Assembly: GCA_037442925.1 (NCBI GenBank)
Contig: JBBIPG010000024.1
Span: forward strand, 1 to 29,441
Length of the DNA: 29,441 nt
Source: Candidatus Fraserbacteria bacterium
GTDB lineage: Bacteria; Bipolaricaulota; Bipolaricaulia; RBG-16-55-9
Direction: 5' to 3'
The notes under the pieces are model-generated. The model saw only the letters and a list, made by a program, of their open reading frames with translations, ran no database searches and was not told the DNA's origin. This document shows positions 3,291 to 22,851 of this stretch, one piece after another. Positions within the stretch are counted from its first letter, which is position 1. The number at the start of each line of letters is the position of its first letter. The position numbers were made by a program, and so were the translations under genes.

Positions 3291-6157
3291 GACGGTGGTG
3301 GATTCTTCTGATCTACCCGCTCAGCCTTCTCGGCTGGGCTGCCATAGCCGTACCAGCAGAGCCTGTCTATCCCCATTACACGTTGACAGTCACGTTTGAC
3401 CCCAAGCGACACACGATCAGCGGCGACGAGATCGTAGAGTATGTCAACGATGCGACGACCCCCTTGAACGCCCTCTACTTCTTGTTGTACCCCAACTACG
3501 AGCGCGAACCCAATCCCTATCTGGAAGAGAGCCAGTTGGATGCCCTCTACCCGGGAGGATTCAATCCGGCCTCGATGAGAATTCACGCCGTGAATGACGC
3601 AGCGGGAAACCCGCTGTCATATGAACTTATGGAGGGTCCCGCCATCTCTCAGACGTATTCGCTCCAAGATACGCTCCTGCGAGTCAAACTTCCGCAGCCG
3701 CTCGCTCCCGGCGCTCAAGTGAAGCTGGTCATTCGCTTCACCACGACATTCCCTCAGACGCTTCGCGGCGATGAAGGGTACTATCGGGAACTGCATACCT
3801 GGCGATTTGGCTGGAACCCTGTCGCGATCTCCGCCCAAGAGCTCATCGAGGGGGAGTATATCTCTTCAGAGCGCCCATACTACAAACAGATCTTCCCTGC
3901 CGCCCTCTATGATCTCACCTTAACCCTGCCCAAGGAGTACCAGGCAGCCATCGGGGCCGATCATCAAGAGGTTCAGGAGGAGACAGACAAAGAGAAGACG
4001 ATTCACGCGCTGAGTGCCGTCCCTGTTCGCTCGGTGCCCTTAAGTCTCAGCCCGGATTTTCGCGTGTATGAGTTCCCGGATCCCGAGATTCCCATCCTCG
4101 TTTATTATCTACCCGGCCATGAGGCTGCTGCGCGGCTGATCGCCAGCTATGCCATAGAGAGCTTAGACTACTATCGAAAACGCTGGGGCGAATATCCCCA
4201 TCGGCGGCTCGTCGTTGCGGAGACAGCCTCCTCTCAGGCGAGCTTCTCCGGAGCCACAGGAGATGTGCTCGTTCTACTCAACCAGCAATTCTTCAGTGAG
4301 AAAGATCTCGCGGTTCCCAACATCATCGACCGTTTGCTCGATGACGTCATCGCCCACGAGGTGGCACACCAGTGGTGGGGGATTGGGATCAGCTCCGATC
4401 TGAACGCGGAGAATTTCCTGAGCGAATCCTTTGCCCAATACTTCTCGATCACGTATTTCGAAGAGAAGTATGGGGCGTTTGAGCCGAACGTCTTCCAGTT
4501 GGAGCGCGATGGACTTCTGGAGAGATTCGTGGAATCCCAGTTTGGGTACATCAACCTGCGCGAGCACCTGCAGGGGGAACTGCCCTACATGCTGGCTGTG
4601 AAGAACGAGTTCGATGAGGCGATCATCAAGCCCCAGCAGGACGTGAAATTCCTCAACTACTCGGGCGAGCGCCTGTACAGCAAAGGCTATCTCATGCTGC
4701 GGGCACTGCGCGGCCTCATCGGAGGGGAAGCGATGGATAAGCTCTTGGTCGCCTCTTATGAGCGCTTCCTGCGACGGGTTGTGACCGTGGAGGAATTCGA
4801 AGCCTTGGCTCAAGAGATCTCAGGACAGGACCTCCGTGAGTTCTTCGAACAAGCCCTTCACAAAGATGAAGCAGAGGAGGGGCGCGCTCCCTATGCCGAT
4901 TATGGCGTCGACCGAGTCGACTCGCGCCGAACAACCGATGGCAAATATGAGTATATCGTGTATCTCTTCCGGCGAGGGGATCTGCGGTTGCCGGTGGAAG
5001 TTGTGGCTGTGGATCGCACAGGAGAGCGGCACAAGCAAGTCTGGAAGGTCGACGACCAAGAGTCAGGCAATTTTGTGATGGTCTTTGACACATCCAGTGC
5101 TCTCTCTCAAATCGAGGTCGATCCGGAGAGTTGGACTCCGGATATCGACCGGCTGAACAACTACTACGTACTTGAGGGTTCGTTCTTGTTCCCCCGCAAG
5201 GTGCAGATCCTCGCTACCGGGGAGAACGCTCTCCCTCTCGATGCCTACTTGATCCGCTTCAATCCCTTCAGTCAGTTGTTAGAGGGCGGGTATCTCTTGG
5301 ATCACCGCTGGCTCTTGGGGCCGGGTTTTGCCGCGTTCATAAAGGACCTGGGGCGCGGAAGTTCCATAAGCGCCCTCGCCGGACTGATGCCGGATCGACA
5401 GATCATCGGCCAGCTCGCTTGGCAGAAGACCTTCTACTCCTATCCTGAACTGGGAATCCTTGGAACGTTTTGGGAAGCAACGGACCAACTGGAAATCTCA
5501 CTGCTTCGTCGACCCGATTCCACAGGAATTCCATCCCTGGACAAACAACTGGGCGCCACGGGTCGGATTGCGAATGTGGTGGGTGTGAGTTGGATTCACC
5601 AAGAATCGCTCCGACAACGTCTGGCTGGGTGGGCTTCGATTCTGAATGATCCCGAAGCGTTTACGCGGATGGAGCTGGGTGGCTGGAAAGATGTTCGCCT
5701 GGGGCCTGACGTTCATCTGGGTGCTCGTTTGGCATTCGGCTGGGGGCAAGGAGATCTGGGGATCTTCCACTTTAACTTGTCTCCACTAAGCAGCTTCGAT
5801 AAAGTGTCAGACTTCCCCTTTGTGGGGAGCGTCCGGTTGCTGGGAGAACTCGATTTCACCTTTCCCTTTCAACGCGACATGAGGTACAACTTGCTCAACA
5901 TCGCGATGCTTCAGGATATTGACGAGCGGATCAGGCTACGTTTTGGCGATACGTGGGATCGTCTGGATCAAGTGGATCTCGGAAATCTTGAAACGCTCAA
6001 GTTAGAGCTGGGCTTCGAGATGACGTTTAGCGGCAGCACGTTGGGTGGGCTCTTCCCGTGGCAACTCACGGTAGGTGTGGCATATCCCCTGGGGCCGATT
6101 GAGCAAGAAGACCGCCAAATCAAGCAATACATCAGCGTCTGGACGCCCTTGTTCTAA
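3287..6157 (+). CDS. Secreted M1-family (gluzincin) zinc metallopeptidase with a C-terminal beta-strand-rich domain
   Basis: Signal peptide; HEVAH-x18-E zinc motif; YSKG catalytic Tyr motif. GTG at 3287 preferred over ATG 3281 because the SD AAGGAGG is 7 nt from it and it overlaps the upstream stop (GTGA). Confidence 0.88.
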   Translation: MRRWWILLIYPLSLLGWAAIAVPAEPVYPHYTLTVTFDPKRHTISGDEIVEYVNDATTPLNALYFLLYPNYEREPNPYLEESQLDALYPGGFNPASMRIHAVNDAAGNPLSYELMEGPAISQTYSLQDTLLRVKLPQPLAPGAQVKLVIRFTTTFPQTLRGDEGYYRELHTWRFGWNPVAISAQELIEGEYISSERPYYKQIFPAALYDLTLTLPKEYQAAIGADHQEVQEETDKEKTIHALSAVPVRSVPLSLSPDFRVYEFPDPEIPILVYYLPGHEAAARLIASYAIESLDYYRKRWGEYPHRRLVVAETASSQASFSGATGDVLVLLNQQFFSEKDLAVPNIIDRLLDDVIAHEVAHQWWGIGISSDLNAENFLSESFAQYFSITYFEEKYGAFEPNVFQLERDGLLERFVESQFGYINLREHLQGELPYMLAVKNEFDEAIIKPQQDVKFLNYSGERLYSKGYLMLRALRGLIGGEAMDKLLVASYERFLRRVVTVEEFEALAQEISGQDLREFFEQALHKDEAEEGRAPYADYGVDRVDSRRTTDGKYEYIVYLFRRGDLRLPVEVVAVDRTGERHKQVWKVDDQESGNFVMVFDTSSALSQIEVDPESWTPDIDRLNNYYVLEGSFLFPRKVQILATGENALPLDAYLIRFNPFSQLLEGGYLLDHRWLLGPGFAAFIKDLGRGSSISALAGLMPDRQIIGQLAWQKTFYSYPELGILGTFWEATDQLEISLLRRPDSTGIPSLDKQLGATGRIANVVGVSWIHQESLRQRLAGWASILNDPEAFTRMELGGWKDVRLGPDVHLGARLAFGWGQGDLGIFHFNLSPLSSFDKVSDFPFVGSVRLLGELDFTFPFQRDMRYNLLNIAMLQDIDERIRLRFGDTWDRLDQVDLGNLETLKLELGFEMTFSGSTLGGLFPWQLTVGVAYPLGPIEQEDRQIKQYISVWTPLF

Positions 6158-6169
6158 GGGTCTTGTGTC

Positions 6170-7072
6170 ATGGCTTCTGCTGGCGAGAGACTACAAATCG
6201 TCCGCACGATCCACGAAGTCCATGAGGCCATCGCCATGGCACGGCGTGCTGGCCAACGCATCGGCTTCATCCCGACCATGGGATATCTACACGAAGGGCA
6301 CGCCAGCTTAATTGATCTTTGTAAGAAGCACGCCGATTATCTGGTAGTGAGCGTCTTTGTCAATCCCACGCAGTTTGGCCCCCAAGAAGACTTCACCCGA
6401 TACCCAAGGGATCTTGTGCGGGATCGTACGCTCATCAAGGCGCATGGGGCGCATCTGCTCTTCGCTCCTTCGGTGGAAGAGATCTATCCCGAAGACTCGT
6501 GCATTCGCTTTGCCATTCTAGATCTTGCGGATCATCTCTGCGGTCCGAAGCGACCCGGGCATTTCCAGGGAGTACTCCTCGTCGTCTCGAAGCTCTTCCA
6601 CATCGTTCAACCCGATGTGGCCGTCTTTGGTCAGAAAGATCTTCAGCAGCTTGTGATCATCCAACACCTTGTGAGAGACCTCAATTTCCCGATTCAGATT
6701 GTGGCAGGTCCCACGGTGCGGGAGCCGGATGGCTTAGCCATGAGTTCCCGCAATTCGTATCTTTCGCCCAAGGAACGTGAGGCCAGCACGGTGCTTTATC
6801 GTGCGCTCCAGCAGGGCAAAGGACTCATAGAAGCCGGTGAACGTCGCGCCTCGGCTGTGACGAAGGCGCTCACGAATACGATCTCTCAGGTGCCATTCTC
6901 TCGACTTGACTATATCGAGATTGTCGAGGTAGAGCGTCTCCAGCCGATCGAAGAGATTGAGGGCCGCATCGCCATAGCTCTTGCCGTCTATATCGGACAG
7001 ACGCGCTTGATTGATAACATCGTCCTTGAGGTTCGTGATGGCAAAGTCCGTGAAATCCCATCTCTCACCTGA
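6170..7072 (+). CDS. panC: Pantoate--beta-alanine ligase
   Basis: PTMGYLHEGH, SVFVNPTQF, RPGHFQGV, FGQKDLQQ, REPDGLAMSSRN, RLIDN motifs. Confidence 0.97.
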   Translation: MASAGERLQIVRTIHEVHEAIAMARRAGQRIGFIPTMGYLHEGHASLIDLCKKHADYLVVSVFVNPTQFGPQEDFTRYPRDLVRDRTLIKAHGAHLLFAPSVEEIYPEDSCIRFAILDLADHLCGPKRPGHFQGVLLVVSKLFHIVQPDVAVFGQKDLQQLVIIQHLVRDLNFPIQIVAGPTVREPDGLAMSSRNSYLSPKEREASTVLYRALQQGKGLIEAGERRASAVTKALTNTISQVPFSRLDYIEIVEVERLQPIEEIEGRIAIALAVYIGQTRLIDNIVLEVRDGKVREIPSLT

Positions 7073-7496
7073 GGAAGTTGTCACTGAAAGTGCTGACGAA
7101 ACCAGGGTGTGGGGGCAGAAGTTTGCCAAGCAACTCCATCCCGGTGACTGCCTCTTGTTGATCGGCGAGTTGGGGGCGGGCAAGACCACGCTGGTGCAGG
7201 GCTTGGCGGAAGGGCTCGGGCTTGATCCCAAAGAGATCATCTCGCCCACGTTTGTGCTCATTCGTGAGCACGAGGGGAAGATCCCTCTCTATCACATCGA
7301 CGCGTATCGCATTCAAGACCCCAAAGAATTGCTCGAAGTTGGGCTGGCAGAGTACTTTGAGCGACCGGGCATCACGGTGATCGAATGGGGCGAGAAGGTG
7401 CGAGAGGTTGCGCCCCGCCATGCTATAGAGATTCGGCTGGAGATTCTCGAGGGAGATCGACGTCGGATTCAACTCATTCGTCCGAAGAAATCTTGA
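7038..7496 (+). CDS. tsaE: tRNA threonylcarbamoyladenosine biosynthesis ATPase
   Basis: GELGAGKTT P-loop, SPTF, HIDAYR, IEW motifs. ATG at 7038 has GAGG 6 nt upstream. Confidence 0.95.
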   Translation: MAKSVKSHLSPEEVVTESADETRVWGQKFAKQLHPGDCLLLIGELGAGKTTLVQGLAEGLGLDPKEIISPTFVLIREHEGKIPLYHIDAYRIQDPKELLEVGLAEYFERPGITVIEWGEKVREVAPRHAIEIRLEILEGDRRRIQLIRPKKS

Positions 7497-7497
7497 T

Positions 7498-7526
7498 TTG
7501 CAATCGTTTCTGACGAAGGGCATACT
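7498..7526 (+). promoter_or_regulatory. Putative sigma70 promoter giving a leaderless transcript (TTGCAA-N17-CATACT-N6-ATG)
   Basis: The -10 element ends 6 nt before ATG 7533 and no SD sequence is present. Confidence 0.6.
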
Positions 7527-7532
7527 GAAACC

Positions 7533-7739
7533 ATGGACGTGCGCGAATTGAACGAAAGCGTGATGCCAAGCGAGGTCTTTGCCGCCGTGTCGTATGATCC
7601 CGAGACGCGAGAAGTAGGAATTCAATACGGCTATGTCTTGCTCAGTCTCCCGCGGGAAGACTTCGAGAGCTTTCTCAGTCTCTTGCTCGAAGCCCAAGAG
7701 AAGTTGCCTGGCAAGCCAAGGGGAAAGGGGGAACCGTGA
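7533..7739 (+). CDS. Small hypothetical protein (68 aa), predicted beta-beta-beta-alpha
   Basis: Fills the gap between tsaE and the Rad52 gene, has its own promoter candidate, and its stop overlaps the next start (GTGA). Confidence 0.75.
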   Translation: MDVRELNESVMPSEVFAAVSYDPETREVGIQYGYVLLSLPREDFESFLSLLLEAQEKLPGKPRGKGEP

Positions 7740-8476
7740 CCGCTGAGAAGAAGCAGGAGCTCTTTGCAGCAGGCGCAGGCAAGACGACTCCGTCTGAGCT
7801 GCCGGCCCCGAAGATCGCATTTACTCCCGAACAGATCGAGATGCTAAAGAAGCCGATTGAACCCAGCCGTGTCCAGCGGCGTGTCGGATTCCGGGGTCAG
7901 CAATTTGAATATCTGCCCATCCATGACATCATCGAGACGGCCAATCGGATCTTTTCTTTCGGCGGCTGGCAGCGCGAAATCCGTCGCTTGGAGAAGGTCT
8001 ATCAAGACGAGACCGAGGGTGTGTATAGCGTGGGCTATCTCTGTGAGTATCGCGTCCGCGTGGGCGACATCATCCACGAAGATGTGGGCTTTGGCTCCTC
8101 CTCGAATCAGCCTGATCTTGCCCAAGCGCACGAAATGGCCGTCAAGGGAGCTGTCTCGGATGCGATCAAACGTTGCTTCCGAGCGTTTGGGGATCAATTT
8201 GGGCTCAGTCTCTACAAGAAGCATGAGCTGGAGGAAGTTGCCCCCAGCGGGCCGCGGATCGCCACCGAAGCTCAACTGGGGAGGCTGCGCAAGACCCTCC
8301 GAGCGCACAACCTCAAGGAAGAAGCGTTACTCGAGTACATCAAAGCGAAGATGGGAAGCGAGTTTTCTAGACTCGAAGAGTTGCCCTTGAAAGTCGCCAG
8401 CCGTGCCATAGAGCGATTCACTCAAGACGAGGCTGCTTTTGTCAAAGAGATTCAAGAGATCGCTCAAGCGAAGTAG
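7736..8476 (+). CDS. Rad52/Rad22-family single-strand annealing protein
   Basis: YL-x6-ETANRIFSFGGW, HEDVGFG and AVKGAVSDAIKRCFRAFGDQFGLSLY match the Rad52 core; helical C-terminal tail starting ATEAQ. SD AAGGGGG upstream of the GTG start. Confidence 0.9.
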   Translation: MTAEKKQELFAAGAGKTTPSELPAPKIAFTPEQIEMLKKPIEPSRVQRRVGFRGQQFEYLPIHDIIETANRIFSFGGWQREIRRLEKVYQDETEGVYSVGYLCEYRVRVGDIIHEDVGFGSSSNQPDLAQAHEMAVKGAVSDAIKRCFRAFGDQFGLSLYKKHELEEVAPSGPRIATEAQLGRLRKTLRAHNLKEEALLEYIKAKMGSEFSRLEELPLKVASRAIERFTQDEAAFVKEIQEIAQAK

Positions 8477-16157: not shown

Positions 16158-16187
16158 AGCTTATCGTAAGTGGCGGATGGGATTCAA
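16158..16187 (-). promoter_or_regulatory. Putative promoter of the DUF4139 gene (TTGAAT-N18-TAAGCT)
   Basis: Hexamers on the minus strand just upstream of the SD. Confidence 0.45.
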
Positions 16188-16200
16188 GCGGGAGAGACGG

Positions 16201-16230
16201 TTGACAAAGATTGGGCGTCGCACCTATAAT
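16201..16230 (+). promoter_or_regulatory. Consensus sigma70 promoter of the tRNA operon (TTGACA-N18-TATAAT)
   Basis: Both hexamers are perfect consensus, ending 13 nt before tRNA-Cys. Confidence 0.85.
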
Positions 16231-16243
16231 TTGGGATACGACT

Positions 16244-16318
16244 GGCGGCGTAGCCAAGAGGTAAGGCGAGGGTCTGCAAAACCCTTACACCCCGGTTCGA
16301 GTCCGGGCGCCGCCTCCA
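16244..16318 (+). tRNA. tRNA-Cys (GCA)
   Basis: Acceptor stem GGCGGCG/CGCCGCC, anticodon loop CT-GCA-AA, GGTTCGAGTCC T-arm, U discriminator, encoded CCA. Confidence 0.97.
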
Positions 16319-16326
16319 TCACTGTG

Positions 16327-16399
16327 GGGCGGTTAGCTCAGTTGGCAGAGCGTCTGCTTGACGTGCAGAAGGTCGGGGGTTCAAGTCCTCCACCGCCCA
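16327..16399 (+). tRNA. tRNA-Val (GAC), CCA not encoded
   Basis: Acceptor stem GGGCGGT/ACCGCCC, anticodon arm TCTGC-TTGACGT-GCAGA, GGTTCAAGTCC T-arm, discriminator A followed by CCCA. Confidence 0.96.
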
Positions 16400-16413
16400 C
16401 CCACAAGGGTAGA

Positions 16414-18152: not shown

Positions 18153-20288
18153 TCATGTGACACGTAGCTCCTCGAAGAACGCGGTTACATCGGCCGTCGG
18201 ACGATGGCTACCATCGTGAACCATGCGCTTTGCTGGAGGAGTCTCGCGATAGAACGGGATTCGCTGCGAGATGCGCTCCTCATACGTTGAGGTCGCTTCG
18301 TTCTTCCAGAAGATCCCAATGGGAATGCGATCGCCCCACTCCAAAGCCCGCTCGACTACCCCTGCGAGTTTATCTTGGATTTGTTCGTCACTCATGCCGG
18401 GCCTGACGACGGGATTGAAGCCTTGCTCTTCGAGCTTATAGACGCGGGGAATCGGCTTGCCCTGTTCGTTCAGCCGGTCCAGGCCACCATACCAGTCTTT
18501 CGTGTTGATGTCGTTGTACGTTGGACAAGGTTGCAGGACATCAATAAACGCGGAGCCCTTATGCTCGATGCCTTGCTGGATGAGGCGAATGAGATGAGGA
18601 ATGTCAAAGGCATAGCCGCGCGCGATGAACGTATATCCTGCGGAGAGCGCCAGTAAGAGAGGATTGATCCCTTGATTCACGTTGGGCTGTGGCAGACTCT
18701 TTGTCTGAACTCCCAGCTTGAGCGTCGGTGATGCTTGACCCTTGGTAAGGCCATACACCCCGTTGTTGTAAAGGACATACGTGAGATCGACGTTGCGCCG
18801 TCCGGCGTTGACAAAGTGACCGGCCCCGATGCCCAGTCCATCGCCGTCGCCGCCCACAGCGATCACCGTCAGCTCTGGATTGGCCAGCTTGGCTCCGATG
18901 GCAAAGGGGAGCACCCGGCCGTGCAGCGTGTGAGTTCCGTAGACCTTGACATAGTGTGCAGTCTTTGCGGAGCAGCCAATTCCCGAGAAGAGGGCTATCC
19001 GATGGGGCTCTAGCTCCATTTGGCTTAGGGTCATTTGAATAGAATTCAATATCCCGAAGTCTCCGCAGTTGTGTAGGATGGCGTTCCCGCTCACGTAACA
19101 CTGAACATCTTCAACCTCCAGATTCCAGACTTCCCCGTCGTATTCGAAGCTATCGACCTGGGCCACGGGCACCATGACGAAGCGATGGAGTTGGTCGGCA
19201 TCGGTCACATCCCGCAGGCATTCCTTGACGAAGACCGTCGACGGCGGCTTTCCCGAAGGAAGAGTGCGCCTCGGCAACCCAAGAATCTCTGCCAGGCGCG
19301 GAAAATCCCTCTTTCCCATCACATAGATGGCATAGGATGTCTGATGGATGCCCGAAGACTTCGAGGTGTGGATGGATGGCGCAATCCCCTGACGCAGGAG
19401 GAGGAGCTTCATCTGTTCGCAGAGCGTCTTGGAGATTGTCTTATAGTGAGCGCGAGGTCTAGTGGAATCCACCCAGCCATCGCCGCGCCACAGCCCCACC
19501 AGTAGCTCCCACTGCTTCTGCAAGGGCAGAAGCATCATGAAATAGGGGATCCGCTTGTTTGCTGCACCGCTACCGAACCACTCTCGAAAGGCGCGCGCCA
19601 GCCGTGAGGAGTTCACGTAGATGCTCACCTGATGTGACTCCGGCTTCTCCTTCACGATCGCTTCGAGTCCGAAGAGTCGATGAATAATCTCTTTGAGATC
19701 TTCCACGTACTCTCGCTCCTCGATATGAAAAGAGAAGCAGACGGCGGCATCGATCCCGCCTTTTACAGCCGACCGGGTATCGATCCACCCTTCGGCCAGA
19801 TAGTAGCCAGTCAAGCGGAGCAACTCACCGGAGACCTCCACTTCCTCTGGCAATGGAGTGCTACGACGATCCATAGGGAGTTTCTTCGGCAATGGGAGGC
19901 GTTCGACGTCTACGATCTCCGAGGGGATGGGGTAGGCCACGTAATCCCTCTTGCGAATGCGATCGGCTCGTTCCCAGATCAGCTCGAAGCGTTCATTGTG
20001 TCGCTTGGGATGCAGGCGGCGGGCAATGAGCACCGGGTGCTCCGGGGTGAGGACCGTCTCGCCAAAGCATTTCGCCTTCACACGATACATCTTGCCCAGA
20101 TGGCGATGGCGATAGACCTCGGTCACGCGATGGTAGTGTCCATCGAGCCCCAGCACGTGGTCCCCGACTCGGATCTGTTCAATGGGTTTGAGATTCGGAT
20201 TCGTGTGAATGGGAGTCTCCGGTAGCACACAGCCGGGACACCAGTTGTTGTGAACGTCTGTCTTGTAGTCTTGCACTTTACGCGCCAT
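18153..20288 (-). CDS. korB: 2-oxoacid:ferredoxin oxidoreductase beta subunit, intein-containing (323 aa after splicing)
   Basis: Removing the intein restores WCPGCGDFGIL; also SGIGCS, HTLHGR, GGDGD...NNGVYGLTKGQ TPP motif and QPCPTYN. Substrate specificity cannot be read from the sequence. Confidence 0.93.
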   Translation of the reverse strand: MARKVQDYKTDVHNNWCPGCVLPETPIHTNPNLKPIEQIRVGDHVLGLDGHYHRVTEVYRHRHLGKMYRVKAKCFGETVLTPEHPVLIARRLHPKRHNERFELIWERADRIRKRDYVAYPIPSEIVDVERLPLPKKLPMDRRSTPLPEEVEVSGELLRLTGYYLAEGWIDTRSAVKGGIDAAVCFSFHIEEREYVEDLKEIIHRLFGLEAIVKEKPESHQVSIYVNSSRLARAFREWFGSGAANKRIPYFMMLLPLQKQWELLVGLWRGDGWVDSTRPRAHYKTISKTLCEQMKLLLLRQGIAPSIHTSKSSGIHQTSYAIYVMGKRDFPRLAEILGLPRRTLPSGKPPSTVFVKECLRDVTDADQLHRFVMVPVAQVDSFEYDGEVWNLEVEDVQCYVSGNAILHNCGDFGILNSIQMTLSQMELEPHRIALFSGIGCSAKTAHYVKVYGTHTLHGRVLPFAIGAKLANPELTVIAVGGDGDGLGIGAGHFVNAGRRNVDLTYVLYNNGVYGLTKGQASPTLKLGVQTKSLPQPNVNQGINPLLLALSAGYTFIARGYAFDIPHLIRLIQQGIEHKGSAFIDVLQPCPTYNDINTKDWYGGLDRLNEQGKPIPRVYKLEEQGFNPVVRPGMSDEQIQDKLAGVVERALEWGDRIPIGIFWKNEATSTYEERISQRIPFYRETPPAKRMVHDGSHRPTADVTAFFEELRVT
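19068..20231 (-). mobile_element. Intein (388 aa) with LAGLIDADG homing endonuclease
   Basis: Block A CVLPETPI (Cys1, codon 20), block B TPEHP, block C LTGYYLAEG, block E LVGLWRGDG, block F VWNLEVED, block G ILHN followed by Cys+1. Confidence 0.96.
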
Positions 20289-22227
20289 GCGTCAATACCA
20301 CCTTTTCGGGTGCCTCTTGCGAGACGATCTGCTTGACAGCTCCATAGATCTCATCGACCGACATCGGGCGTCCGTTGTACTTCACCACCAAGTGATCGGC
20401 CGCAATTCCTGTATATTGCCGAACAAGACCGGCGAGCTGTCCGGAGAAGTTGTTCTCAATGGCGATGAGCTGTTTTGCCAAGCTGAGATGCTTCCTCATC
20501 TCCTCCGTCGGGAATGGCCAGAGCAAGCGCGCCTGGATGAACTTCAGCGAGATGTCTTCTGTTTTCAGTAGTTCCATGGCTTCGAGGATGGCGCCCTTGG
20601 TTGATCCCCAGCTGATGACCACGGTCTTCGCTTTGGGATCACCAAAGAGATTCAGTTTTTCGTCGGCAGGAATCTCCTGGCCGAGTGTTTCCAATTTGAT
20701 CATGCGCTTGTCCATCATTTTGACGCGCGTCACGGGGTCTTCGGTGATGTGACCCCACTCGTCGTGTTCATCGCTTGTCCTCCAGTTGATGCCGCCTCGG
20801 GTTCCGATGGCCACTCGTGGGGAGATCCCGGTCTCGGCGAACTGGAAGGTCTTGAAGGACCCGTTTTCGCTGAGGCTAGCTATTTCTTCTTCGCCGAGCA
20901 ATCTCCCGCGGTCGAGGCGCAGCGAGCGCGTATCGAAAACGGGGTACGTCTGGCTGCTGGAGGCGATCGCTTTATCTAACAAGTGGATGACGGGCAGCTG
21001 GTACTTCTCTGCCCAGTTGAAGGCGCGAATGGTGTCGAAAAACGCTTCTTCGAGATCCCCTGAGGCAATGACAATACGAGGAGCTTCGCCGTGACCTGCG
21101 TGGATGGCGAAGCGCAGATCGCCCTGCTCGCTGCGAGTGGGCAAGCCCGTCGAAGGGCTCCCGCGTTGATAGAGTGTCACAACCAGCGGGACCTCATCCA
21201 TGGCAGCAAAGCCGAGACCCTCGACCATGAGTGAGAAGCCGGGGCCCGAGGTCGCTGTGGCAGCGCGTGCTCCTGTAAGAGCAGCTCCGCTGGCCATGTT
21301 GATGGCTGAGATCTCGTCTTCGCACTGCACGACTAGAATTGCGCCCTGCGTCTTCTCTCCACCGGTGAGGGAGAAGATCTCGTGAGCCTCGAGATAGGTG
21401 CTCTCATCGGTGGCTGGACTGATGGGGTAATACGTCTGGAACGAGCAGCCCGAGATCATCTTTCCCAGAGCTACGGCCTGATTTCCCGTGAGGTAGATGC
21501 GCTTCTCTTTCGTCGGGATGGGGTGGAGCTTACAGAAGAAATCCTCCGCAGACGAGCGGGCGATGTGTTCGTACGCCATCTCACAGGCCTGCACGTTCAT
21601 GTCCACCACCTTCTTCTTGCCTTTGAAGATGCTGGCCAGCGCCCTCTCCAGCCACTCGACCCCATAGCCTACCAGAGCGCAAGACGCGGCGACCGCCATG
21701 GTGTTGGCCGTCCTCTTGAGCTTGCTCACCGGTTCTCCGAGTTTCTTGGAGAGCTTCCCAATCAAATCATCATAGGGCACGGCGAAGGGACGCACGCCCT
21801 GTTTGCTCACGATGGCCAATAGATCCCCCATCGTCTGTCCGACGCCCTGCTCAGTAAGGAAGCTCTGGATATCTGCACGTACGCGATTCTCCATGGCCGG
21901 GATGCGCTCCAGCGGAGTCTCCAGCAGCTTGGGATCGTAGATGATCCCACCGCCAGATACGACATCCAGAGCGTGCAAGAAGACCGTTTCGGCATCGAAT
22001 GTCACCAGTAGATCGACGCGATCCGATGAGGCGCCTAGGGGGTGATCGGCCACGCGCACTTGATAATAGCTATGTTCACCCATGATGTTGGAGTAGTACT
22101 CGCGTTGGCCGTAGACATGCAGACCACCGGAGGCGCAGGCCCGAGCGAACATGTTGGCGGCGGAGTCCACGCCGCTGCCTTGGGCGCCACCAATAAGCCA
22201 GTTGAGGTGGTTGATCTTCGTCTTCAT
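20278..22227 (-). CDS. korA: 2-oxoacid:ferredoxin oxidoreductase alpha subunit (gamma-alpha fusion)
   Basis: IGGAQGSGV, YYSNIMGEHS, YPISPA (YPITP-type motif), QCEDEISA, TATSGPGFSLM, QRGSPSTGLPT, ENNFSGQL; overlaps the beta gene start by 11 nt. Confidence 0.94.
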   Translation of the reverse strand: MKTKINHLNWLIGGAQGSGVDSAANMFARACASGGLHVYGQREYYSNIMGEHSYYQVRVADHPLGASSDRVDLLVTFDAETVFLHALDVVSGGGIIYDPKLLETPLERIPAMENRVRADIQSFLTEQGVGQTMGDLLAIVSKQGVRPFAVPYDDLIGKLSKKLGEPVSKLKRTANTMAVAASCALVGYGVEWLERALASIFKGKKKVVDMNVQACEMAYEHIARSSAEDFFCKLHPIPTKEKRIYLTGNQAVALGKMISGCSFQTYYPISPATDESTYLEAHEIFSLTGGEKTQGAILVVQCEDEISAINMASGAALTGARAATATSGPGFSLMVEGLGFAAMDEVPLVVTLYQRGSPSTGLPTRSEQGDLRFAIHAGHGEAPRIVIASGDLEEAFFDTIRAFNWAEKYQLPVIHLLDKAIASSSQTYPVFDTRSLRLDRGRLLGEEEIASLSENGSFKTFQFAETGISPRVAIGTRGGINWRTSDEHDEWGHITEDPVTRVKMMDKRMIKLETLGQEIPADEKLNLFGDPKAKTVVISWGSTKGAILEAMELLKTEDISLKFIQARLLWPFPTEEMRKHLSLAKQLIAIENNFSGQLAGLVRQYTGIAADHLVVKYNGRPMSVDEIYGAVKQIVSQEAPEKVVLTHGA

Positions 22228-22262: not shown

Positions 22263-22291
22263 ACTGTAGCAGATGCGCTCGAGTCGTTCAA
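22263..22291 (-). promoter_or_regulatory. Putative korAB promoter (TTGAAC-N17-TACAGT, extended TGn)
   Basis: Hexamers upstream of the SD-containing stretch GGAGGAGG. Confidence 0.6.
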
Positions 22292-22301
22292 GTAAAGATG
22301 C

Positions 22302-22330
22302 TGGCAATCTCGATACGCAGCCATTACAAT
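22302..22330 (+). promoter_or_regulatory. Putative peroxiredoxin promoter (TGGCAA-N17-TACAAT)
   Basis: Back-to-back with the korAB promoter; SD GAGGAGGT at 22358-22365. Confidence 0.5.
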
Positions 22331-22371
22331 CATCAGTACGACTTGCAAACGCATCCAGAGGAGGTAATTGC

Positions 22372-22851
22372 ATGTCCGTAAGCGTTGGACAAAAAGCCCC
22401 CGATTTTACAGTCCCCAGCAGCGACGGCAAGAAAGTGGAGCCCTTTCAGCTCAGCAAACACTTGGGCCAAGAACACATCGTCCTGGCGTTCTTCCCCTTG
22501 GCCTTCACTTCGGTCTGTACCAAAGAGATGTGCCATTTTCGCGACAGCATGGCACTATTCAACAATTTGAAAACTCAAGTCTACGGCATCAGCGTGGATA
22601 GCCCCTATGCTCTCAATGTGTTCATTAAGTCAGAGGGACTCAAGTTCAAGCTCCTTAGCGACTTCAACAAGGAAGTGAGCCGAGCCTATGGCGTCCTCCA
22701 CGAGAAACTGGGTACCCTCAACGGAGTCTCGAAGCGAAGTATCTTCGTACTCGACAAGACGGGTGTTGTCCGCTATCGTTGGGTGTCGGAAGATCCAGGC
22801 GTGATGCCCAATTTTGGGGAGATTCAGCAAGCGCTGGAGCAGCTGCCATGA
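22372..22851 (+). CDS. Peroxiredoxin (BCP/PrxQ or AhpE-like)
   Basis: VGQKAPDF, FFPLAFTSVCTKEMC (PxxxTxxC plus a second Cys five residues later), GISVD, LLSD, conserved Arg in KRSIFV. ATG 22372 follows a strong SD. Confidence 0.93.
   Translation: MSVSVGQKAPDFTVPSSDGKKVEPFQLSKHLGQEHIVLAFFPLAFTSVCTKEMCHFRDSMALFNNLKTQVYGISVDSPYALNVFIKSEGLKFKLLSDFNKEVSRAYGVLHEKLGTLNGVSKRSIFVLDKTGVVRYRWVSEDPGVMPNFGEIQQALEQLP

Follow-up and report, generated by a model that had tools for sequence, protein, structure and literature searches.

An intein at the iron-sulfur ligand loop of 2-oxoacid:ferredoxin oxidoreductase beta: a likely mobile element whose CPG-Cys1 junction is probably incidental

In the available passages of four papers, a Cys-Pro-Gly (CPG) sequence placed before the first cysteine (Cys1) of the Ssp and Npu DnaE inteins traps them, the Pab MoaA intein forms a native bond between Cys1 and the cysteine three residues before it (Cys-3), and the settings in which trapping was observed were oxidising E. 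coli strains or in vitro work (PMC10663303, PMC3922620, PMC11766414, PMC10772547). According to accessible portions of another paper, not every class 1 intein shows redox inhibition, and inteins that bear a nuclease usually belong to a parasitic cycle (PMC6195587). Here we describe an intein in the beta subunit of a 2-oxoacid:ferredoxin oxidoreductase (OFOR), encoded in a 29,441-nucleotide stretch of Candidatus Fraserbacteria DNA (contig JBBIPG010000024.1; the whole stretch is called the window). It resembles Pab MoaA and the engineered CPGC DnaE inteins in having Cys-3 and Cys1 as a CxxC, here with a spacer of exactly Pro-Gly and in an Fe-S enzyme host; the disulfide and the block were measured in those systems, whereas the OFOR intein is known from its sequence. 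Unlike in those systems, Cys-3 itself probably binds the cluster once the enzyme is mature, and alleles without the intein have the motif natively. The insert is a real intein of an ordinary kind, likely mobile, at a barely described site, and a redox lock there, while plausible, is likely incidental.

Solved relatives exist for both parts of the protein. According to the accessible text of PMC5020499, the proximal cluster of Sulfolobus OFOR is bound by its CXGC loop (Cys12-Cys15), and OFORs of two subunits that lack an internal ferredoxin domain tolerate oxygen relatively well. The Sulfolobus tokodaii StOFOR1 and StOFOR2 beta subunits (5b48_B and 5b46_B), which are described in those terms, share with the window's protein the two-subunit form, one [4Fe-4S] cluster and the CXGC loop; unlike it, they have no intein. 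The solved homing inteins TliVMA (7qss, 7qsu), PhoVMA (7qst), PI-PkoII (2cw7), PI-SceI (1vde) and PI-PfuI (1dq3) share with the insert the HINT fold with a nested two-motif LAGLIDADG endonuclease, Cys1, block B T-x-x-H and a terminal His-Asn. They differ from it in that structural alignments give only 14-18% identity, and the OFOR intein's host is a metabolic Fe-S enzyme whose junction has Cys-3. A PorB (COG1013) intein of Ca. Parvarchaeum acidiphilum, in the same host protein family, is one table entry in the supplement of Novikova et al. 2016 (PMC4760082); the available rows hold no site, junction or redox discussion, and it could lie either at the site described here (site a) or at a second one (site b, below). 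Nitrosotenuis does not occur in that supplement file, nor does 'ferredoxin' or 'oxoacid' in the main text. No OFOR intein was found in the titles and abstract openings of the literature searched, a coverage that lies outside most subscription journals.

The beta-subunit gene was read as one open reading frame (ORF) of 711 residues (P0001) without an internal stop, in the order W16-C17-P18-G19 / C20 ... H406-N407 / C408-G-D-F. The start of W16 (20243) and the end of G409 (19062) coincide with the limits given in the preliminary description. The precursor proposed there, W-C17-P-G-[Cys1...His-Asn]-Cys+1-G-D, was borne out by this reading and by natural empty alleles, and the exact natural CPGC it named is present as C17-P-G-C20, a CxxC across the N-junction. 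Intein boundaries were set by the empty alleles of 11 related genomes, which read WC(P/A)(G/A)CGD with no insert, and a run X4 contig with flanks ~91-94% identical skips exactly 1164 bases. Block D lysine K245 is present in 125/125 rows of the intein alignment, in which some loci duplicate protein rows. By Pfam, LAGLIDADG_3 scored above its cut-off and Intein_splicing (PF14890) just below (30.5 vs 35.8 bits). The AlphaFold model (78 homologs) had a mean pLDDT of 87.8 and a pTM of 0.63, with low confidence for residues 11-20 (pLDDT 61), and Foldseek matched it to the TliVMA (7qss, E 5.8e-23), PI-SceI and PI-PkoII inteins as well as to Sulfolobus OFOR beta. The sequence features confirm a class 1 intein (HINT fold, Cys1, block B TxxH, His-Asn, Cys+1), and the two helices with acidic residues and the block D lysine identify it as carrying a LAGLIDADG homing endonuclease. 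Because the class 1 residues are intact and the frame is uninterrupted, the intein likely removes itself by splicing and restores the [4Fe-4S] ligand loop. An artefact or misassembly was ruled out: a contig from the probable source run spans the stretch without differences, and the insert is common to relatives. At window positions 19564-21438, a deeper contig of another organism (run X1, record 2) is collinear with the locus, including parts of the intein, and a second carrier may therefore share the sample.

The host protein is assigned to the Sulfolobus-type two-subunit OFOR beta (PorB/KorB, TIGR02177) on its profile match, the adjacent alpha gene and four cluster cysteines. Its NF041171 score of 408 falls under the cut-off of 423 because the insert divides the profile match, and alignment of the empty allele L014 to 5b48_B and 5b46_B gives E ~1e-107. 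C408, C439 and C588 are invariant in alignment A1; from this alignment, C439 and C588 are presumably cluster ligands. The preliminary description had C17 and C408 ligating the cluster of an O2-sensitive enzyme. Ligation by both is likely, given that the loop aligns with the Sulfolobus CXGC; the label 'O2-sensitive' is weaker for this subtype because the nearest solved relatives are relatively oxygen-tolerant. Feature coordinates are given in Table 1.

Table 1. Features of the OFOR locus (window positions; row counts refer to the 125 aligned full inteins)
Feature	Position	Strand	Details
OFOR beta precursor ORF	18153..20288	-	TIGR02177 386.7 bits vs cut-off 261.9
N-extein, residues 1-19, ends W-C17-P-G	20232..20288	-	Cys17 (Cys-3) codon 20240..20238
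Class 1 intein with homing endonuclease, 388 aa	19068..20231	-	1164 bp; Cys1 = C20, end His406-Asn407
Block B T81-P-E-H84	20037..20048	-	T and H invariant, 125/125
First LAGLIDADG helix, residues 156-168	19785..19823	-	Acidic E166; E in 120/125 rows; aligns with PI-PkoII
Second LAGLIDADG helix, residues 262-272	19473..19505	-	Acidic D270; D in 119/125 rows
C-extein, TPP-binding domain	18153..19067	-	Cys+1 = C408 (19067..19065)
Further likely cluster ligands in C-extein	C439 18974..18972; C588 18527..18525	-	Alignment A1
OFOR alpha subunit, 649 aa	20278..22227	-	NF041170 828.8 bits (cut-off 800); TIGR03710 above cut-off; overlaps beta gene start
Peroxiredoxin-like gene	22273..22851	+	Divergent from OFOR alpha; NCBIfam thiol peroxidase matches below cut-off

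We consider it probable that this intact class 1 LAGLIDADG intein persists as a selfish homing element and that its CPG-Cys1 junction is a by-product of the site. By class 1 chemistry, Cys20 would attack the Gly19 bond, Cys408 would take over the N-extein and Asn407 would cyclise, restoring WCPGCGD so that C17, C408, C439 and C588 could bind the cluster. The nuclease and the trees (below) suggest that the freed intein would cut empty WCPG^CGD alleles and that repair would copy it in. Such a site would suit an intein because its cysteine can act as the +1 nucleophile and the host cannot easily alter the loop. Under oxidative stress, C17 and C20 are predicted to be able to close, delaying splicing; we lean towards this chemistry operating under oxidising conditions by analogy with the engineered CPGC DnaE and the Cys-3/Cys1 disulfide of Pab MoaA, a comparison already made in the preliminary description and upheld by the cited review and paper passages. 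The block would affect newly made precursor only, and given that this CPGC pair is also present in the apo-protein without the intein, little new sensing would be gained. The same residues could instead form a metal or cluster trap, in which zinc or a premature Fe-S cluster is bound by C17, C20 and C408, C439 and C588 lying close by, and metal status sets the splicing rate. The precursor N-terminus does have CPGC, five cysteines lie around the junction and cluster site, and zinc inhibits another intein according to the accessible part of PMC7360933; the patchiness described next argues against a selected function, and we regard such a trap as very improbable.

The precursor search gave 1005 matches among 8000 scored candidates, and the best 120 were read. 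All 120 have the Asn/CGD C-junction (HN 85, GN 33, SN 1, CN 1), so the insert is not due to chance; the N-junction, visible in 114 of them, always has Cys1, preceded by CPG in 108 and by CAG in 6. Among the matches listed, those with names include Bipolaricaulia, Nitrososphaera, Ca. Nitrosotenuis uzonensis and Ca. Nitrosocaldus; the closest relatives that have a name bear the label Bipolaricaulota, to which the host therefore probably belongs. When a distant empty allele was used to look for longer relatives, 23 of 116 new proteins carried an intein at this site, the named ones being Aenigmarchaeota, Micrarchaeota and Levybacteria; many OFOR beta-CBS fusions were also met in this search. On these sequences, same-site inteins are not rare and extend over Bipolaricaulota, ammonia-oxidising archaea, DPANN archaea and the candidate phyla radiation (CPR), host ranges that rest on few named matches, most homologs carrying no taxon. 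Viral carriers were sought through 17 pattern matches, with 0 confirmed in viral contigs.

Presence is patchy. An orthologue (≥62% identity) was found in 24 of the 151 phylum genomes searched, 13 with the intein and 11 without (10 from a first census plus L019), and a same-genus genome at 88% identity is intein-free. Nitrososphaeria were sampled by protein searches; among the 120 matches listed for shorter relatives of the Nitrosotenuis protein, seven were truncated carriers and the rest empty. A 251-row extein tree, built from two sets from different searches with 17 duplicate rows dropped and with no shuffle control, requires at least 29 changes of intein state. Exteins 99% identical can differ in intein state (P0140/P0144 and P0067/P0213).

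Selection and tree conflict likewise point to mobility. Over 13 loci, the median ratio of non-synonymous to synonymous change (dN/dS) was 0.15 for the endonuclease (27 unsaturated of 78 pairs), 0.065 for the splicing domain plus C-extein and 0.32 for the linker, indicating that the endonuclease is under purifying selection. The nearest intein to the window's is that of P0020, a divergent OFOR type: the inteins are 71.6% identical and the exteins 47.2%, against a median of -15.8 points for intein minus extein identity over 7260 pairs. In approximately unbiased (AU) tests on 25 rows, with groups picked after larger trees were seen, an intein tree that groups the ten orthologous carriers was rejected (p 0.0005), and so was an extein tree in which P0020 joins them (p 0.00001). 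This conflict argues that the intein moved horizontally between divergent OFOR types; with patchy presence and nuclease selection, it completes the signs of mobility read from these sequences. A neutral relic, inserted long ago, inherited vertically and lost repeatedly with no present homing, would agree with intein clades that broadly follow extein clades in ammonia oxidisers (15 changes, 10 clades) and with the loss of E166 in 5/125 rows and of D270 in 6/125. The endonuclease dN/dS of ~0.15, the AU-supported jump involving P0020 and the co-occurrence of two types of intein inside individual extein clades (P0047, P0062, P0064, P0074) speak against it, and of the readings considered we give this one the least credence.

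The OFOR beta subunit is also entered elsewhere. At site b, SGIG/C (residue ~50), just before the third cluster cysteine, an unrelated intein without Cys-3 was found in 8 homologs (P0249, P0250, P0255, P0258, P0259, P0260, P0262, P0263); it is 24.6% identical to the site-a intein and of a different lineage. Within a clade of 16 proteins, none has both inteins. Related inteins were sought among 1.84 billion representatives, yielding 6696 matches of which the best 150 were examined. Within these best 150, the closest kin outside OFOR lie in IscU/NifU at P-x/CGD, before the first cysteine, without Cys-3 and with residues +1 to +3 identical to those of the OFOR site (P0363, P0364, P0368, P0369, P0371, P0372, P0374, P0379, P0388, P0409 are examples). 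Other kin in this set lie in thioredoxin reductase, NuoI, B12 radical SAM, ferredoxin, IspG and SufB proteins. Cys+1 is used in 135/165 C-junctions, and NuoI has insertions ahead of its first cysteine and also ahead of its third. Most simply read, inteins of this lineage settle at conserved metal-binding cysteines, many of them inside CxxC. In the NuoI-like P0367, P0378, P0386, P0433 and P0442, one ferredoxin motif is involved, and in three of them the inteins stand in tandem, six residues apart.

Thioredoxin reductase-like proteins carry related inteins within their CxxC-D motif, which places Cys-3 at a redox-active site (residue ~135; P0416, P0428, P0434, P0437, P0446, P0466, with further cases in P0467, P0469, P0479 and P0498). 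By sequence these proteins, of which three were scanned, appear stronger trap candidates than OFOR. It is conceivable, and in our view unlikely, that a homing-spread family of natural CPGC traps in Bipolaricaulota, ammonia-oxidising archaea, DPANN and CPR was co-opted as a post-translational oxidation gate controlling how OFOR matures, and that thioredoxin reductase, NuoI and radical SAM enzymes have sister gates.

Where the intein is common, hosts may alter the loop spacer residues and so escape cutting. In a Nitrosotenuis-like clade of 55 rows, the loop is changed in 20/35 empty alleles vs 0/15 carriers with a readable junction (5 further carriers have an unreadable one) and 1/67 other empty alleles. 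The loops become CAG, CVG, CGG or C-A/S-D; on the tree, 9 steps are needed for one kind of change and 5 for the other. In a 16-row clade from the second search, in which both inteins circulate, 8/8 site-b carriers are empty at site a and have changed spacers, vs changed spacers in 4/84 proteins empty at both sites. The empty allele L019, from the host's own order, reads CPA, and altered-loop empties include P0121, P0123, P0125-P0127, P0135, P0143, P0145, P0147, P0153, P0154 and P0161. Loop changes in these two exposed lineages thus look like a possible escape from homing, though they could be repair scars instead of selected escape. Conserved insertion sites have been argued, in the accessible text of PMC2814812, to make immunity hard to evolve; the altered loops may represent immunity evolving despite a conserved site.

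Carriage was compared with intein load and with oxygen respiration. Leaving the OFOR intein out, at least two other intein ORFs were present in 13/13 carriers vs 3/11 non-carriers, the distinct ORFs being counted by hand and kin genomes not being independent. In the genome of the window, inteins interrupt SufB (two), an ARC-type ATPase, MutS and DnaB as well as three or more further ORFs, gene names being read from the sequences; intein-rich spots lie at G000:C29 ~3600-8300 and on C59, C67, C33, C6 and C7. Heme-copper oxidase subunit I was found in 12/13 carriers vs 9/11 empty genomes (p 0.58, one empty genome with weak matches being scored absent), and intein-free kin likely meet oxygen too. 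Judged from gene content, carriage follows the genome-wide intein load and not oxygen respiration.

These comparisons bear on the regulatory reading of the preliminary description, an adaptive redox gate in which hosts retain the intein because a C17-C20 disulfide keeps OFOR beta unspliced under oxidative stress until thioredoxin-type reduction frees it. The exact CPG-Cys1 trap sequence is portable between Ssp and Npu DnaE, Pab MoaA provides a native precedent, and hosts include aerobes (going by the names Nitrosotenuis and Nitrosocaldus and by the oxidases of the carrier genomes). The short N-extein, modelled with low confidence, is likely free to close the ring, and there is a weak excess of Cys-3 sites. 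Against such a gate, the intein is absent from near-identical relatives, jumps horizontally and shows no oxidase link; its full endonuclease is kept and selected, a feature tied to the parasitic cycle in the accessible text of PMC6195587. Site-b and IscU inteins lack Cys-3, the nearest enzymes of solved structure tolerate oxygen relatively well, CPGC is found in the empty apo-protein too, and hosts seem to change the site where the intein circulates. The marks of a domesticated sensor were absent among the 24 genomes, since 13 carry the intein, the nuclease is kept and oxidases show no link. We therefore hold an adaptive gate to be improbable, and the caveat of the preliminary description, that any Cys1 intein at this site recreates CxxC, is the likely answer.

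Several observations weigh against a purely selfish element with an incidental junction. The host encodes heme-copper oxidases and thus likely meets oxygen, and homing and host benefit can coexist. An archaeal extein clade of 37 rows consists entirely of carriers (empty alleles around it were not searched for). Mini-inteins of ~150 aa without an endonuclease persist at the OFOR site (P0082 and P0088, in a Bipolaricaulota-type extein clade), forms that score ranking disfavours. Synonymous sites were near saturation in the dN/dS analysis. Cys1 was found in 136/136 same-site inteins with both junctions readable and CPG in 127 of them, with no Ala1 or Ser1 allele in this set; such retention is expected under a trap, and equally under class 1 chemistry and cluster need. 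Among related inteins, Cys-3 occurs at 9/115 clustered sites vs Cys+4 at 3/120, the direction a trap predicts (p 0.15), falling to 7 vs 3 (p 0.34) without the query site and with two radical SAM rows merged; enrichment of Cys-3 over Cys+4 was rejected on these values. As to escape, the 6 independent pairs all point the same way with a non-significant median p of 0.125, and 9 same-site carriers have CAG or CPA, so spacer changes are not an absolute protection.

Whether inteins are host stress sensors or mere parasites is the subject of an ongoing argument, and whichever view is right, the OFOR site lends itself well to testing it. The engineered trap sequence is present exactly, one carrier is in culture (Ca. 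Nitrosotenuis uzonensis, P0051), and natural empty alleles reach 99% identity. Natural CAG/CPA spacer variants, mini-inteins and an internal control, the intein without Cys-3 at another cluster cysteine, are available as well. The host-side loop change was the less expected result; if true, changes in two lineages would make a homing cost visible and reveal host immunity at a supposedly unchangeable Fe-S site.

Around the locus, the peroxiredoxin-like gene likely starts at a later ATG near 22372. It adjoins OFOR in 4/5 same-family genomes searched, 3 of those intein-free, and was ruled out as a switch partner because it flanks intein-free loci too. A scan for promoters and terminators at the locus gave no excess over shuffles (2 vs 2.4 and 3 vs 3.6). 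The same genome encodes a second, intein-free KorB-type OFOR beta with the motif WCPGCGN (G000:C2:26716-27447), and OFOR beta fused to 2Fe-2S and FAD/NAD-binding domains was seen in Woesearchaeota-labelled proteins (P0264, P0267, P0269-P0287). Elsewhere in the window, at 16177..16400, the apparent start of a 394-aa ORF runs through tRNA-like sequence, and its true start therefore likely lies further downstream.

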